From the IMG/VR virus record IMGVR_UViG_2541047167_000007: a stretch of DNA of 4,257 bases. One strand, written 5' to 3'. The notes under the pieces were generated by a model. It did not search any database. It saw nothing but the letters and a program-made list of their open reading frames with translations, and had not been told where the DNA came from. How positions within the stretch are numbered: position 1 is the first letter of the stretch; the number at the start of each line of letters is the position of its first letter. Shown here piece by piece: positions 1-4,257 of the stretch. Source of the DNA: a virus (Duplodnaviria > Heunggongvirae > Uroviricota > Caudoviricetes). Both the position numbers and the translations under genes were made by a program.

Positions 1-1
1 G

Positions 2-598
2 AACGTGAAAACGGATTTATCAGCAACGGAAACGGCCTGGAAGCTGTGGGAACTTATGGGGGAGGTGTATTCGAACCGCTGGACCCAGAAGAACGGGGCT
101 GCGCCGTCGAAGCTCTGGATTGCTCAGATTGGCGCGATGACTGAACAGCAAATCCGGCAGGTCTGCCGTCAGTGCATGGACCGCTGCCGGGCGGGTGAAA
201 CGTGGCCTCCGGACCTGGCTGAGTTTGTGGCGTTGATTTCGGAGAGCGGGGCAAATCCATTTGGCCTGACGGTGGATGCCGTGATGGAGGAGTACCGTCG
301 CTGGAGGAATGAATCCTGGCGGTACGACGGGAGTGATAAATACCCGTGGCCACAGCCGGTGCTGTACCACATTTGCCTCGAGATGCGTGACAGAGGGATT
401 GAGCGGCAGATGACGGAAGGTGAGTTAAAACGACTTGCAGAACGGCAACTGACGAAATGGGCAAAGCAAGTTGGTAACGGGATGAGTATTCCCCCGATCC
501 GGAGACAACTCGCATCGCCGAAGTGCCCGCAAGGGCCAACGCCAATTGAATTACTGAAACAGGAATACGAGCGCCGGAAGGCGGCTGGTTTTGTTTGA
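2..598 (+). CDS. Phage replication protein P-like (lambda P family, helicase loader); 5' end lies outside the window
   Basis: The frame is open from the window edge (codon phase 2-4) to TGA 596-598; the GTG at 5 is only the first in-window start. The translation carries lambda-P-like C-terminal motifs (PDLAEFVALI, DKYPWPQPVLYHICLEMRD, TEGELKRLAERQLTKWAKQV). Recognised from memory of lambda P, not searched. Confidence 0.65.
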   Translation, partial: NVKTDLSATETAWKLWELMGEVYSNRWTQKNGAAPSKLWIAQIGAMTEQQIRQVCRQCMDRCRAGETWPPDLAEFVALISESGANPFGLTVDAVMEEYRRWRNESWRYDGSDKYPWPQPVLYHICLEMRDRGIERQMTEGELKRLAERQLTKWAKQVGNGMSIPPIRRQLASPKCPQGPTPIELLKQEYERRKAAGFV

Positions 599-631
599 AT
601 CTGAGAAACGATTTTGTCGGAGGAAATTTTA

Positions 632-1348
632 ATGGAAACCGTATCTGACGCACTGAAAGCACTGAAAAGAGCCTCTTCACATGTGGTGGCAGCTCGCCTT
701 GGAATTAGTCGTGAAGAGGCTGTCAACGAACTGTGGAAACTGAAACGCCGTGGAGAAGCGGATAACAAGGGGGCGATATGGTGGCTGACTCAGGCTGGTG
801 AAAGTGAACCGGTGTCACCGGTACCGAAAGTGACGGCGCAAATGCTGACAGAGGCGATTGAACAACATGGCCCACAAACGGCGGATGAACTGGCATTGAT
901 GTTCGGAATTACCTCCCGCCGGGCGAATTCATCGCTGGCAATGGCAATCAGCAAAGGGTGTCTGATTCGCGTGAATCAGGATGGTAAATTTCGTTACTGC
1001 ATACCGGGCGTTGATTTACCGGCAGAGCCGAAAGCAGCATCCGTAGCTGAAACGGAGGGTAAAGCCCTTCCTCAGCCAGCTGGTGTTGCGTTACCAGTCC
1101 AGGAAACGGCTGCACAGGAAGAAATTAAAACAGAAGCGGTGGAGGACATTGTGAAGTTGCAGCAATCGTTCACTGAAGCGAAAGCAGATGACCTGATTCT
1201 ACCATCGCTGCATGTGGCTAACCGCGAGCTGCGCCGGGCGAAAAGTAATGTTCAGAAGTGGGAGCGAGTCTGTGCTGCGCTACGGGAACTGAACAAACAC
1301 AGGGATATTCTCCGGGATATTACCGCCACCAGAGAGCAGCAGCGGTGA
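632..1348 (+). CDS. Hypothetical prophage protein with two winged-helix-like repeats, an Ala/Glu/Pro-rich linker and a charged C-terminal helix (possibly DUF1627 family)
   Basis: ATG 632 follows SD GGAGGA (619-624) with a 7-nt spacer; the track start at 614 is TTG and lacks an SD. Stop is TGA 1346-1348. Two similar segments ([39 protein letters not shown] and [43 protein letters not shown]) look like wHTH units. Confidence 0.6.
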
Positions 1349-1662
1349 GTGGCTGGAAGAAGTGGCGCTGGGCTGAAATCCTGATACTCCGGCAGTGTGC
1401 GGGAACGATGAGAGTCGAAAGCATCGGTTATCTGATTGGCCGTAGTGAGTCAGCCGTCAGGACGAAAGCGCGGGAACTGGGTATCAGCATGATGTTACGG
1501 GGTGATTATCACCAGTCAGCCAAATGTTCACAGCGTGATATTGAGCTGGCGTGGCAACTGCATCAGCGTGGTGTACCCCGACGGGAAATTGCCGAAAAGT
1601 TTGGGATGAAGTTGGGCGCAGTGAATAACTACGTTTATTTCGACAGGAGGGTTCAGGAGTGA
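1345..1662 (+). CDS. Small putative helix-turn-helix DNA-binding protein (start uncertain: GTG 1345 or ATG 1408)
   Basis: GTG 1345 overlaps the upstream stop (GTGA), suggesting translational coupling; the alternative ATG 1408 has only a weak GGGA SD. Stop is TGA 1660-1662. HTH-like segments are [15 protein letters not shown] and [19 protein letters not shown]. The track's longer 1258 start would overlap the upstream gene by 90 nt. Confidence 0.5.
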
Positions 1663-1961
1663 GGGTGAGGGTTTATATCGCCGGTCCGATGACGGGATAT
1701 GAAAATTTTAACCGCGAGGCATTTCACAAAACGGAAGAGGTGCTGAAACGGGAAGGGCATACCGTTTTAAACCCGGCAGTACTTCCGGACGGGCTGACTC
1801 AGCCACACTACATGGATATTTGCATGGCAATGCTCCGTTGCGTGGATGCGGTTTACATGCTGAAAGGCTGGCAGCAGTCGGCAGGTGCAGGGGCTGAGCT
1901 GGCACTGGAGGAGAAACCGGGCCATGCGGTGATTTTTCAGGAGGTGGGCAGTGAATATTGA
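1659..1961 (+). CDS. DUF4406 family protein (nucleoside 2-deoxyribosyltransferase-like fold)
   Basis: GTG 1659 overlaps the upstream TGA (GTGA), with SD AGGAGG at 1645-1650; GTG 1665 is an alternative start. The N-terminal RVYIAGPMTG motif and the 100-aa length are typical of DUF4406 as I recall the family. Stop is TGA 1959-1961. Confidence 0.7.
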   Translation: MRVRVYIAGPMTGYENFNREAFHKTEEVLKREGHTVLNPAVLPDGLTQPHYMDICMAMLRCVDAVYMLKGWQQSAGAGAELALEEKPGHAVIFQEVGSEY

Positions 1962-2268
1962 CCCGGCGATAACGATTGATATGGCCCTGAACGCCGGCCT
2001 GGCACTTCTTGGTTATTTCTACATTATGTTCTGCAGCGGACGATGGCTGTCACTGTTGTTCATGAAAAAATGGAATAAACGCCGTAAGCAGGAGCAACGC
2101 CAGAAGGCAATGGATGCATTTTTCGAAGCCTTCGGAATTGACGGCATGGAACCAGGGGATCCAGCTCGCGCAATCAGCAGAGGGGGTGTAGTAATCCTTG
2201 TATATCGGAGTGAAGAGAAAAATGACGATCACAAAACAACGTGTAGAAGAAATCATATCCCGCATTGA
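1951..2268 (+). CDS. Small single-pass membrane protein, hypothetical
   Basis: GTG 1951 follows SD AGGAGG (1939-1944) with a 6-nt spacer and overlaps the upstream gene by 11 nt. A hydrophobic segment (LNAGLALLGYFYIMFCSGRWLSLLF) is followed by a basic cluster (KKWNKRRKQEQRQK). The last ~15 codons overlap the next gene out of frame, so the 3' end is uncertain. Confidence 0.45.
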   Translation: MNIDPAITIDMALNAGLALLGYFYIMFCSGRWLSLLFMKKWNKRRKQEQRQKAMDAFFEAFGIDGMEPGDPARAISRGGVVILVYRSEEKNDDHKTTCRRNHIPH

Positions 2269-2539
2269 AATGTATGGACATGGTGCAGGGTATATCGCAG
2301 ACGAGGTTAATGATCTGGCTATACTGGCGCTGAATTTATCAAATATCGCGAACCTGAAGCGATACGAGCTTGATATGGGAGGTTGCGACTCGTGCGGTCA
2401 GGATTGTGGCGCTGATATGACTGAAGATCCTGATGGTGATTATGTCCTGTTTGATGACGTGGTTAAGTTGTTTGAATTTGATACAACCACTCAAAAGTTA
2501 GAAATCCCGGCAAAGGAGGCAGCCAGTGGGCAAGATTGA
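2222..2539 (+). CDS. Hypothetical acidic protein with a CxxCxxxC cysteine cluster
   Basis: ATG 2222 is preferred over the track's TTG 2198; GGAG/GAAGAG lie upstream. Stop is TGA 2537-2539. It contains CDSCGQDCG followed by an Asp-rich stretch. No family recognised. Confidence 0.5.
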   Translation: MTITKQRVEEIISRIEMYGHGAGYIADEVNDLAILALNLSNIANLKRYELDMGGCDSCGQDCGADMTEDPDGDYVLFDDVVKLFEFDTTTQKLEIPAKEAASGQD

Positions 2540-2963
2540 CTATCAGGCACTGCGTGAGGCAGCACAAAACTATCAATCGACGCTGGCGTGGTATCAGGCT
2601 ACCCCGGACAGCCCAAATGCTGAACGGGATTGTGATGCGGCTCTTGCTGCGTTTAAGCGTCACATCCGTCATCGGGAAGCGGATATTATCGCTGATTTGC
2701 TGGATGGACTGGAAGAAGCAAAATCACAACTCAACGAGCAGCGTGAGTATTACGAAGGCGTTATCTCTGATGGGAGCAAGCGTATTGCTGAACTGGAAGC
2801 GCGGGAAGTTCAATTACCGACTCGCTACGACCTTCGATATGGACACCCGATAAATGCAGATGAGCGACATGTCATGATACCTAAAGAAAATGGCAGTTGG
2901 CTTTACCTGATTGACCTAGAACACGCATTACGCGTCGCTGGCATTCGCATCAAAGGAGAGTGA
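2526..2963 (+). CDS. Ead/Ea22-like family phage protein
   Basis: GTG 2526 follows SD AAGGAGG (2513-2519) with a 6-nt spacer. The N-terminal IDYQALREAA, the central LNEQREYYEGVISDGSKRIAELE and the C-terminal AGIRIKGE match my recollection of lambda Ea22-type proteins. Not searched. Confidence 0.6.
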   Translation: MGKIDYQALREAAQNYQSTLAWYQATPDSPNAERDCDAALAAFKRHIRHREADIIADLLDGLEEAKSQLNEQREYYEGVISDGSKRIAELEAREVQLPTRYDLRYGHPINADERHVMIPKENGSWLYLIDLEHALRVAGIRIKGE

Positions 2964-2964
2964 G

Positions 2965-3156
2965 ATGAACGGACAAATATCAATTGTTCGACCAGGAGCA
3001 TGTGACGATCGCGAAATACGAATGATTATTCGTCTGGCGATGGGGAAAACAATAACTGCTCTCATTACTCCAGAAAATCTCGCATTAGCATTAACAGGAA
3101 AGTCAGACATGCCAGTAGAGCTAAAGCTGCGAAATGTTGAGATTAAGGTGAAATAG
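2965..3156 (+). CDS. Hypothetical small protein (63 aa)
   Basis: ATG 2965 lies 1 nt after the upstream stop, with SD AGGAGA (2953-2958). Stop is TAG 3154-3156. No family recognised. Confidence 0.5.
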   Translation: MNGQISIVRPGACDDREIRMIIRLAMGKTITALITPENLALALTGKSDMPVELKLRNVEIKVK

Positions 3157-3158
3157 CT

Positions 3159-3716
3159 ATGACCACTATTACCAAAGATCGACTGCTGACAATCCAGCAT
3201 TGGCGCGAAACATACGGACCGGGTAGCAACGTTGTGCTTCCAGCAGAAGAAGCGGAAGAGCTGGCACGGATTGCGCTGGCATCACTGGCAGCAGTATCGG
3301 ATGAACGAGCAGCCTATGAATTATTTATGGAGAAGCGTTTCGGGGAATCTGTAGATCGCCGCAGAGCAAAAAATGGCGATAGAGAATACATGGCATGGGA
3401 TATGGCGCTTGGCTGGATTATCTGGTGTCACCGCGCCGCCATGCTTCAGGCTGGAAACTTTCGGGAAAATAAGGGTTCGTCAACCAATAATTTTCGGATA
3501 ATCTCGGAAACGTCAACCAACTCTCCGGCAATCCCTGATGAGGTGTTGTCCGCAATCCTGAAGGTCGCCAGGCTTCGTGCAGATTTCGATGCTTCTGAAG
3601 TGGACAGGCGAGGTATCGGTAGTTGTCTGGATGAGGCCGAGCAAGAACTTATCGTTACCATTAACGAATACGCCAGTCAGATCGCAGTAGAAGCGACACA
3701 GGGGGAGAACCAATGA
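3159..3716 (+). CDS. Hypothetical prophage protein (185 aa)
   Basis: ATG 3159 lies 2 nt after the upstream stop, with AAGGTGA upstream. Stop is TGA 3714-3716. Coding-like composition; no family recognised. Confidence 0.6.
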   Translation: MTTITKDRLLTIQHWRETYGPGSNVVLPAEEAEELARIALASLAAVSDERAAYELFMEKRFGESVDRRRAKNGDREYMAWDMALGWIIWCHRAAMLQAGNFRENKGSSTNNFRIISETSTNSPAIPDEVLSAILKVARLRADFDASEVDRRGIGSCLDEAEQELIVTINEYASQIAVEATQGENQ

Positions 3717-3790
3717 GCCGGCCAGATGCATTTGCAGGCGTTGCTATAGCTATTGCTTTTCTAGTATATGTTATTTGTCGGTGGGGGTAA
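3713..3790 (+). CDS. Candidate small hydrophobic peptide (25 aa: MSRPDAFAGVAIAIAFLVYVICRWG)
   Basis: ATG 3713 overlaps the upstream stop (ATGA), with a GGGGGAG SD at 3701-3707. One predicted transmembrane helix. Stop is TAA 3788-3790. Absent from the ORF track, presumably for length. Confidence 0.3.
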   Translation: MSRPDAFAGVAIAIAFLVYVICRWG

Positions 3791-3825
3791 AAACGTTCGC
3801 CGGGATTCACACCAAGGGAGGGAAT

Positions 3826-3930
3826 ATGTCGGATGATATTTCACTGGTAATGGAAGGCGCTCTGGCTGTTATTGCTGTTGTGGGTGTTTACTGCCTGGTT
3901 GTGTTTTTGATGGAGCGCCTGGGGAACTGA
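3826..3930 (+). CDS. Candidate small membrane peptide (34 aa: MSDDISLVMEGALAVIAVVGVYCLVVFLMERLGN)
   Basis: ATG 3826 sits 5 nt after a strong SD AAGGGAGGG (3813-3821). Acidic N-terminus followed by a ~20-residue hydrophobic helix. Stop is TGA 3928-3930. Absent from the ORF track. Confidence 0.4.
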   Translation: MSDDISLVMEGALAVIAVVGVYCLVVFLMERLGN

Positions 3931-3940
3931 ATTCATTCCG

Positions 3941-3956
3941 TATGGGAATTCCCATA
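3941..3956. repeat. Perfect 16-bp palindrome TATGGGAATTCCCATA, centred on GAATTC
   Basis: Read directly: 3941-3956 is its own reverse complement, and the flanks CCG / TCGG extend it imperfectly. It lies 11 nt after the 34-aa ORF stop and 15 nt before the candidate hok -35. Confidence 0.9.
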
Positions 3957-3970
3957 TCGGGCAAAACGGT

Positions 3971-3998
3971 TTGCTGTAAAGCGAGAGTTAAGTAGAAT
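3971..3998 (+). promoter_or_regulatory. Candidate sigma70 promoter for the hok/mok mRNA
   Basis: -35 TTGCTG (3971-3976), 16-nt spacer, -10 TAGAAT (3993-3998); this would give a ~115-nt leader before the mok-like ATG. Pattern match only. Confidence 0.3.
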
Positions 3999-4016
3999 TG
4001 CTGCGGGTGCTTGAGG

Positions 4017-4052
4017 CTGTCTGCCTCGGGCATGCCACCGTAAGGCAGACAG
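4017..4052 (+). other. Stem-loop in the predicted hok mRNA 5' leader (10-bp stem, 16-nt loop)
   Basis: CTGTCTGCCT (4017-4026) is the exact reverse complement of AGGCAGACAG (4043-4052). No U-tract follows on either strand, so it is not a canonical terminator. Confidence 0.5.
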
Positions 4053-4128
4053 AGAAAAGCCCCAGTTAACATTACGCGTCCTGCAAGACGCTTAACATTA
4101 ATCTGAGGCCCAATCTATATGAAAGACA
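4050..4128 (-). ncRNA. sok: Predicted Sok-like antisense RNA, complementary to the mok-like translation initiation region
   Basis: A minus-strand promoter is predicted just downstream. On the minus strand GCCUCAG (4109-4103) pairs with CUGGGGC (4065-4059), including one G-U wobble, followed by UUUUCUCU (4058-4051), a terminator-like structure. The RNA would cover the mok-like SD (4105-4108) and ATG (4119). Inference by analogy to hok/sok. Confidence 0.4.
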
Positions 4129-4257
4129 AATCTAGGTTAGCCTCTTACGCGCCGAAAGGCAAGGAGAAGCAGGCTATGAAGCAGCAAAAGGCGATGTTAA
4201 TCGCCCTGATCGTCATCTGTTTAACCGTCATAGTGACGGCACTGGTAACGAGGAAAG
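4119..4257 (+). CDS. mok: Mok-like upstream reading frame, in frame with hok (19-codon N-terminal extension: MKDKSRLASYAPKGKEKQA); 3' partial
   Basis: ATG 4119 follows GAGG (4105-4108) with a 10-nt spacer; the frame runs without a stop into the hok ATG at 4176. This mirrors chromosomal mok/hok pairs, which as I recall share frame and stop codon. Confidence 0.35.
   Translation, partial: MKDKSRLASYAPKGKEKQAMKQQKAMLIALIVICLTVIVTALVTRK
4134..4162 (-). promoter_or_regulatory. Candidate promoter for the sok-like antisense RNA
   Basis: Minus strand: -35 TTGCCT (4162-4157), 17-nt spacer, -10 TAACCT (4139-4134), predicting a transcription start near 4126-4128. The -10 is weak (TANNNT only). Confidence 0.3.
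4176..4257 (+). CDS. hok: Hok/Gef-family type I toxin (RelF/HokD-like N-terminus); 3' end outside the window
   Basis: ATG 4176 follows SD AAGGAGA (4161-4167) with an 8-nt spacer. The translation MKQQKAMLIALIVICLTVIVTALVTRK matches the conserved Hok/Gef/RelF N-terminal transmembrane region from memory. The frame is open to the window end. Confidence 0.8.
   Translation, partial: MKQQKAMLIALIVICLTVIVTALVTRK

Follow-up and report, generated by a model that had tools for sequence, protein, structure and literature searches.

A strand-asymmetric hairpin in a hokW/sokW-type locus of a lambdoid E. coli prophage as the presumed Sok terminator and a predicted switch element of the hok leader

The DNA analyzed here, referred to as the window, is a lambdoid prophage early region of 4,257 nucleotides. 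Across ~95% of its length it shares 99.1% identity with a prophage of E. coli O157:H7 SS52, which carries genes for replication protein P, DUF1627, ead/Ea22-like and DUF551 proteins and then 'hokD'. Positions 1-3930 hold small plus-strand early prophage genes that are tightly packed, with overlapping stop and start codons (e.g. GTGA and ATGA junctions), and the SS52 names for this run are replication protein P (C-terminal part), DUF1627, DUF4406, DUF4752, ead/Ea22-like and DUF551. A small hydrophobic ORF at 3837-3930, which encodes MSDDISLVMEGALAVIAVVGVYCLVVFLMERLGN, is hypothetical in SS52. The hok/sok module adjoins the 3′ end of this gene run, and between the stop codon of the hydrophobic ORF and the putative hok −35 lies a perfect 16-bp palindrome, TATGGGAATTCCCATA (3941-3956), which might bind a protein or form a small hairpin.

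The last 250 nt of the window constitute a hok/sok-type type I toxin-antitoxin locus. A cmscan search matched RF01794 to the plus strand at 4005-4181 with 117.7 bits (gathering score 59, E 2.5e-27) over the complete model (1-157), and the closest annotated relative is hokW/mokW/sokW of Stx2 phage 933W (AF125520), with 92.6% identity across 295 nt. The 933W record annotates hokW, mokW and a 71-nt minus-strand 'SokW antisense RNA' (misc_RNA). What is described below on sequence features, membership in the family, energetics, conservation and the predicted switch was established in this analysis. The features of the sense strand are as follows.

3971 to 3998, plus strand: putative hok promoter read from the sequence, −35 TTGCTG (3971-3976), 16-nt spacer, −10 TAGAAT (3993-3998)
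4005 to 4181, plus strand: hok mRNA leader (RF01794), comprising tac, 5′ hairpin, ucb, hairpin, Sok-target hairpin, and hok Shine-Dalgarno (SD) and start
4005 to 4016, plus strand: tac, the 5′ end of hok mRNA (GGGUGCUUGAGG), invariant among 72 leaders of the long form defined below
4057 to 4065, plus strand: ucb or anti-SD box (AAGCCCCAG), 5′ arm of the outer stem, from the folds and homologous to R1 A70-U77
4105 to 4108, plus strand: mok SD GAGG, with A4106 as the mismatched base, homologous to R1 G105-G108
4105 to 4144, plus strand: Sok-target hairpin of the open hok mRNA, in which the mok SD pairs with dcb (GCCUC, 4140-4144) and which holds the mok start, from the Rfam consensus and the truncated-mRNA fold
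4119 to 4257, plus strand: mok-like reading frame running past the window end, from translation, with mokW likewise annotated in 933W
4176 to 4257, plus strand: first 27 codons of the hok toxin gene (MKQQKAMLIALIVICLTVIVTALVTRK), cut by the window end, from translation

The ATG at 4176 opens a Hok-family ORF, 27 of whose ~51 codons are inside the window, and identical or near-identical sequences are annotated as hokW in 933W and as hokD in SS52. The mok-like ATG at 4119 lies 19 codons (57 nt) upstream of the hok ATG and shares its frame, so that a 'Mok' made here would be an N-terminally extended Hok, as for 933W mokW. A 2-nt indel relative to 933W is offset by a shifted mok ATG, which keeps both the frame and the 57-nt distance. 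The mok SD precedes the ATG at 4119 by 10 nt. The putative hok promoter ends 6-7 nt upstream of 4005/4006 (the Rfam model start and the position aligned to R1 +1, respectively) and was not flagged by a generic promoter consensus scan of 3700-4257.

On the opposite strand, the locus carries the elements expected of a Sok antisense gene.

4134 to 4162, minus strand: Sok promoter read from the sequence, −35 TTGCCT (4162 to 4157), 17-nt spacer, −10 TAACCT (4139 to 4134)
4055 to 4127, minus strand: predicted Sok antisense RNA of 73 nt, by alignment transfer of the sokW (AF125520) coordinates
4059 to 4109, minus strand: presumed Sok (SokW-type) terminator hairpin of 22 pairs, from folding and homolog conservation
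4050 to 4058, minus strand: U-rich tail of the presumed Sok terminator (UUUUCUCUG on this strand), from the sequence; the 933W sokW 3′ end maps to 4055

By pairwise alignment the 71 nt of 933W sokW map to window positions 4127 to 4055, and it is from this correspondence that we infer the exact 5′ and 3′ ends of Sok. The minus strand from 4127 to 4050 folds at −30.8 kcal/mol into a 5′ tail followed by the hairpin (4109 to 4059) and the U-rich tail. The predicted tail is complementary to the mok start region; in the fold its first ~10-16 nt (4127 to ~4112) are unpaired except for a weak 4-bp closing helix, and up to the hairpin it measures about 16-18 nt (4127 to ~4110). This modeled order of 5′ tail, hairpin and U-rich tail is the classical Sok architecture and matches the 933W sokW annotation. 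The base of the stem is GC-rich (GCCUCAG/CUGGGGC), and the run directly after it, UUUUCUCU (4058 to 4051), holds 6 U in 8 positions; the U-tract that the preliminary description had placed behind the stem is indeed there, reading C-UUUU-C-U-C-U from 4058 to 4050. On the plus strand, 4050-4058 is an A-tract that pairs with the UU of tac. A generic terminator consensus scan of 3700-4257 returned 0 sites, for which the bulge, the mismatch, the 22-pair length and the interrupted U-tract are the probable reasons, and in the generic sigma-70 scan of the same interval the Sok promoter fell below threshold, its −10 TAACCT having 3/6 consensus bases. Given so weak a −10 and a bulged stem, both scans were uninformative. 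The Sok −35/−10 and the U-tract are conserved among homologous loci.

Evidence for SokW expression is taken from the literature on homologs. The RNA of sokW from the Sakai prophage Sp5 has been detected by northern blot, and mutation of the sokW −10 in Sp5 unleashes HokW toxicity (Takada et al. 2021, PMC8621323). The northern probe is the equivalent of about 4097-4126 in the window, and the Sok −10 here (TAGGTTA on the plus strand) is the heptamer swapped by primer YO-421 for the sokW 'pro-less' mutant. By analogy with the 92.6%-identical Sp5 hokW-sokW, Sok would be expressed from the window locus and would neutralize the toxin. We suggest that the weak minus-strand promoter would yield a ~73-nt Sok antisense RNA whose single-stranded 5′ tail could pair with the mok translation-initiation region, and that the hairpin from 4109 to 4059 together with UUUUCUCU would provide both an intrinsic terminator and the structural body of the antitoxin. 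By the same homology, 4059-4109 on the minus strand is presumably the known Sok terminator stem-loop, at which Sok would end.

The hairpin itself was first noted for its difference between strands, and the coordinates and bases in the preliminary description are all correct when read directly from the sequence. The outer stem (GCCCCAG, 4059-4065, with CTGAGGC, 4103-4109) contains a single C4062·A4106 mismatch on the plus strand, where the minus strand has a G·U wobble, and in the inner hairpin GCGTC (4076-4080) pairs with GACGC (4087-4091). As a minus-strand RNA the element forms a single, almost continuous stem of 22 pairs with a bulged A (4102), an A·G mismatch (4075/4092) and a UGCA loop. 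The wobble at 4062/4106, which the preliminary description names, is one of four in the minus-strand stem, the others being 4070/4097, 4071/4096 and 4081/4086, and all four positions are C·A or A·C mismatches on the plus strand. Folding of both strands did not give comparable energies, and the proposed asymmetry holds for the region as well as for the isolated hairpin. For 4040-4130, the minus strand folded at −33.1 kcal/mol (z −5.2, with 0/200 shuffles as good) and the plus strand at −20.8 kcal/mol (z −3.4); the 51-mer 4059-4109 by itself gave −26.6 kcal/mol on the minus strand vs −16.8 kcal/mol on the plus strand.

Having established the asymmetry in the window, we considered its conservation. 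A set of 183 homologous loci was collected from genomes and viral contigs, and the GCCCC...GAGGC hairpin was extracted from each, giving 39 unique variants in two size classes, a long form of 48-51 nt (the window type) and a short form of 28-33 nt. The exact 51-mer of the window is present in 66 of the 183 loci. The minus strand was the more stable in every one of the 39 variants (mean ΔΔG −8.9 kcal/mol). In the long-form stem (20 variants), 94.5% of cells were paired on the minus strand vs 78.4% on the plus strand, and, scored over the same column pairs on both strands, 78 wobble cells were minus-only vs 7 plus-only. The short-form stem behaved alike, with 93.6% of cells paired on the minus strand vs 72.5% on the plus strand and 48 minus-only vs 2 plus-only wobble cells.

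Covariation, which had been put forward as a check on the stem, was found in one class and not in the other. In the short-form stem 15 cells had changed on both sides, a value that 0/500 shuffles reached and that is slightly conservative, as MAFFT sets the gap for the bulge in the wrong place in 3 of the short-form sequences. The long form (20 variants) did not exceed its shuffles because the variants are too similar: the mean column identity of the stem is 94%, with little independent variation, and the conservation of the long-form stem may partly reflect shared ancestry. A compensatory change from G-C to A-U at 4076/4091 does occur in 3 long-form variants. RNAalifold applied to the short forms recovered the outer 9 pairs and not the rest of the stem.

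These data bear on two other readings of the hairpin. The first is that the repeat and hairpin are a chance arrangement devoid of function, for which the small size of the elements and nothing else can be cited. Against it are the minus-strand z of −5.2, with no fold as good in 200 shuffles, the RF01794 match at E 2.5e-27, the occurrence of the exact 51-mer in 66 loci and the fact that 79% of complete E. coli genomes have a sequence closely matching 4040-4145; conservation refutes this reading, and we give it practically no weight. The second holds that the hairpin acts only in the sense hok mRNA, that the stronger minus-strand fold is incidental and that the antisense RNA either is not made from this copy or has its end elsewhere. 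The plus-strand hairpin does form with P=0.99 in the predicted full-length mRNA and is part of the Rfam sense-strand consensus, and generic scans produced no minus-strand promoter or terminator. However, wobble cells in the long and short forms together favor the minus strand by 126 to 9, all 39 variants fold more stably on the minus strand, the Sok −35/−10 and U-tract are conserved, and sokW is annotated in 933W and was seen by northern in the 92.6%-identical Sp5/933W locus. We therefore regard a purely sense-strand role as very improbable and conclude with high confidence that 4050-4127 is dual-coded DNA and that the type I toxin-antitoxin locus around it, in a lambdoid E. coli prophage, is of the hokW/sokW type.

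Other features of the homolog set are recorded here in their own right. In the 5,426 complete E. coli genomes, the median copy number of the close match to 4040-4145 is 2; none has this segment at ≥99% identity, the best full-length match being 94.3%. Within otherwise highly conserved long-form leaders, 4110-4133 is hypervariable. This segment covers the Sok 5′ tail, the mok start and the apex of the Sok-target hairpin, and it occurs in 27 variants among 119 loci, the window variant having been seen once. Such variability is consistent with diversified antisense specificity among the multiple hok/sok copies of a genome. A second variable patch in these leaders is 4034-4043, the loop of the 5′ hairpin between tac and ucb, with a mean column entropy of 0.77 vs ≤0.2 in the flanking stem (4015-4024 and 4045-4054). 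Loci of E. coli type were also found under other names: hok loci of 93-98% identity in PP818812.1, labeled Actinobacillus phage vB_Apl-pPE4, and loci L028 and L021 in very short contigs labeled Xanthomonas pisi (431 bp) and Acinetobacter idrijaensis (275 bp). These Actinobacillus phage, X. pisi and A. idrijaensis records are probably contamination or mislabeling.

We turn to the sense strand, for which the R1 locus provides the reference. R1 hok/sok is a plasmid-borne post-segregational killing system. The R1 reference sequence used here is identical to NC_004998.1 positions 124252-124583 (IncF plasmid). Like the window it has a tac element, ucb (GCCCC), a mok SD (GAGGC) and dcb (GCCUC), its leader holds an antisense promoter, and its hairpin shows the same asymmetry, with −21.8 kcal/mol on the minus strand vs −9.9 kcal/mol on the plus strand. 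R1 G71-C75 and G105-C109 align with window 4059-4063 and 4105-4109, and therefore R1 C74·A106 corresponds to C4062·A4106. The R1 hairpin differs from that of the window in being 39 nt long, with another inner stem and without the GCGUC/GACGC apical extension; R1 also has an additional 17-nt insertion in its 5′ hairpin, at the position of the 4034-4043 loop, and direct reading of its sequence places mok out of frame with hok, unlike in the window.

In nascent and full-length 'closed' R1 hok mRNA the anti-SD/ucb holds the mok SD (GAGG, G105-G108) in a stem-loop, and trimming of the 3′ end leads to pairing of tac with ucb and of the SD with dcb (Le Rhun et al. 2022, PMC9841398, whose two-conformer account summarizes the Gerdes laboratory model). 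Each of the R1 mutations A106G and C74T closes the C·A mismatch, locks the mRNA in the closed state and abolishes Hok production (PMC9841398). Since the window ends inside hok, corresponding folds were computed with the window leader joined to a 3′ part taken from L180, the closest complete homolog, which carries an fbi-like CCUCAACGCACCC just upstream of its terminator that is complementary to tac. In the full-length fold tac paired with the fbi-like CCUCAACGCACCC and ucb with the SD (P=0.99). In the 3′-truncated fold the thermodynamic prediction was P=0.92 for tac/ucb, with tac pairing to 4057-4063, P=0.60 for SD/dcb and P=0.07 for ucb/SD. In these predictions ucb is paired with the mok SD region (4103-4109) as long as the mRNA is nascent or full-length and has tac as its partner once the mRNA is truncated. 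Introducing A4106G or C4062T in silico locked the truncated mRNA in the closed form (P about 0.85) and slightly stabilized Sok.

These folds correct one claim and qualify another. The outer stem had been considered stable only in the minus-strand transcript, which is wrong: on the plus strand it is the known mok SD/anti-SD (ucb) helix, with P=0.99 in the full-length mRNA. It had also been argued that the antisense strand is the one that folds and terminates here; the minus-strand fold is the stronger, and the end of Sok is expected at this site, but folding occurs on the sense strand too. Since the plus-strand outer stem is the ucb/SD helix of the closed mRNA, the C·A mismatch is a functional, tuned feature of the sense RNA and no evidence against sense folding. 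That C4062·A4106 would be needed for function is taken by analogy from the R1 homolog.

Based on the R1 model and these predictions, we suggest the following course of events. In nascent and full-length mRNA, ucb (GCCCCAG) would pair with the mok SD region (CUGAGGC) and block both mok/hok translation and Sok binding. Upon 3′ processing, tac would capture ucb and the SD would re-pair with dcb (4140-4144), giving an open mRNA that could be reached by ribosomes or by Sok and RNase III. The outer C4062·A4106 mismatch would keep the sense helix weak enough for displacement by tac, and with C·A or A·C on the sense strand vs G·U on the antisense strand at four positions, the antisense terminator could be strong and the sense helix weaker although one DNA sequence specifies both. 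We also considered whether the explanation for the outer mismatch extends to the inner C·A sites and rejected it, as C4070T and A4097G in silico hardly shifted the predicted switch. In these models, the SD/anti-SD switch does not account for the wobble bias seen in the inner stem.

The inner part of the hairpin contains a direct repeat and a segment that is absent from much of the family.

4066 to 4074, no strand assigned: TTAACATTA copy 1, middle of the 5′ arm (plus), from a repeat search; pairs with copy 2
4092 to 4100, no strand assigned: TTAACATTA copy 2, middle of the 3′ arm (plus), from a repeat search; pairs with copy 1
4074 to 4091, no strand assigned: apical extension with the inner GCGUC/GACGC hairpin, extra vs the Rfam consensus in the cmscan alignment and absent from short forms

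The window contains these two exact copies of TTAACATTA and no others; allowing ≤1 mismatch there are 5 matches vs 0.6 expected, a number that 0/200 shuffles reached. Both copies had been reported at these positions, correctly, as separate elements nested inside the stem. They are instead the two arms of the mid-stem. On the minus strand the 9-mers pair with a one-base offset, UUAAUGUUA with UAAUGUUAA, through 7 Watson-Crick and 2 G·U pairs, and they do so because TTAACATTAA is almost its own reverse complement, the sole difference being CA vs TG. The near self-complementarity of UUAAUGUUAA makes the stem arms look alike and so produces the TTAACATTA 'direct repeat'. The main hairpin was missed as an inverted repeat by the repeat search; its arms hold transitions and a bulge at the DNA level.

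In the cmscan alignment ~16 nt at the apex (about 4076 to 4091) appear as low-confidence lower-case letters inserted relative to the family consensus, and short-form homologs have neither this apical insertion nor the TTAACATTA repeat. It could be proposed that the 9-bp repeats are a scar that resembles a target-site duplication and was left when a small palindrome (CGCGTCCTGCAAGACGC) inserted into a short ancestral Sok hairpin. Exact 9-bp repeats flanking a 17-nt palindromic core, the ~16 apical nt that are an insertion vs the family consensus, and the discrete hairpin classes of 28-33 nt and 48-51 nt would all fit such an event. Yet the repeats pair with each other and lengthen the stem, and among the 183 loci there is no empty-site homolog, GCCCCAG-TTAACATTA-ATCTGAGGC, with a single TTAACATTA copy. 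Moreover, in diverged long forms from Kluyvera and other Enterobacteriaceae the identity of the two 9-mer copies drops to 5-7/9, yet the minus-strand hairpin persists at −24 to −28 kcal/mol; copy identity thus decays while the stem is maintained, and therefore selection keeps the pairing and not the repetition. We consider an insertion scar improbable, and the idea concerns origin only and is compatible with function as a Sok terminator.

As for the extension itself, the 16-20 nt at the apex are specific to the prophage hokW-type clade and give SokW its almost continuous 22-pair helix. SokW is lost fast after prophage induction. If the extension were a selected module that tunes SokW, it could make free SokW an RNase III substrate or otherwise set a very short SokW life. 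Separately, the family-wide wobble bias in the inner stem may reflect a general design rule of cis-antisense pairs, by which the same DNA would encode an antisense terminator that is strong and a sense hairpin that is deliberately weak. We regard these proposals as speculative and on balance unlikely.

The closest known systems compare with the window as follows. In hokW/mokW/sokW of 933W and Sakai Sp5, the 51-nt hairpin differs from that of the window by one loop base (T4083 to G), and there is no difference in the Sok −10 (TAACCT), the mok SD, the ucb, the in-frame mok at a 19-codon distance or the location in a lambdoid prophage. The differences are in the Sok 5′ tail and mok start (4110-4133), which have diverged and contain the 2-nt indel, in the loop of the 5′ hairpin (4034-4043), and in the neighborhood, the window locus following replication/nin-like early genes. 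Judging from the diverged 5′ tail, antisense specificity probably differs between the window Sok and the 933W/Sp5 SokW. Short-form chromosomal hok loci (hokC-like in Escherichia, and those of Photorhabdus, Erwinia and Pantoea) share the invariant GCCCC...GAGGC outer stem, the C·A / G·U site and the minus-strand bias with the window, but their hairpins are 28-33 nt with a 12-13 bp stem and lack both the apical extension and the TTAACATTA repeat. RF01794, named 'sok antitoxin (CssrC)', holds the inner part of the window hairpin in its consensus, to which the window adds ~16 apical nt. The family matches the hok-sense strand, its consensus being the open truncated hok leader (tac/ucb and SD/dcb), and the Sok RNA is on the opposite strand.

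We conclude that the hairpin is real but ordinary, an already known member of the thoroughly characterized hok/sok family. The locus is a textbook hok/sok module with a close homolog annotated in 1999 and characterized in 2021, and it therefore offers little novelty. The main value of the analysis is annotation, which places Sok, its promoter and terminator and the switch elements of the hok leader at exact coordinates in this prophage. For annotators it is important to note that the Rfam 'sok' match marks the sense strand and that its use at face value puts the antitoxin on the wrong strand. For the family as a whole, the G·U / C·A asymmetry is general, with two opposing RNA requirements met by one DNA sequence.
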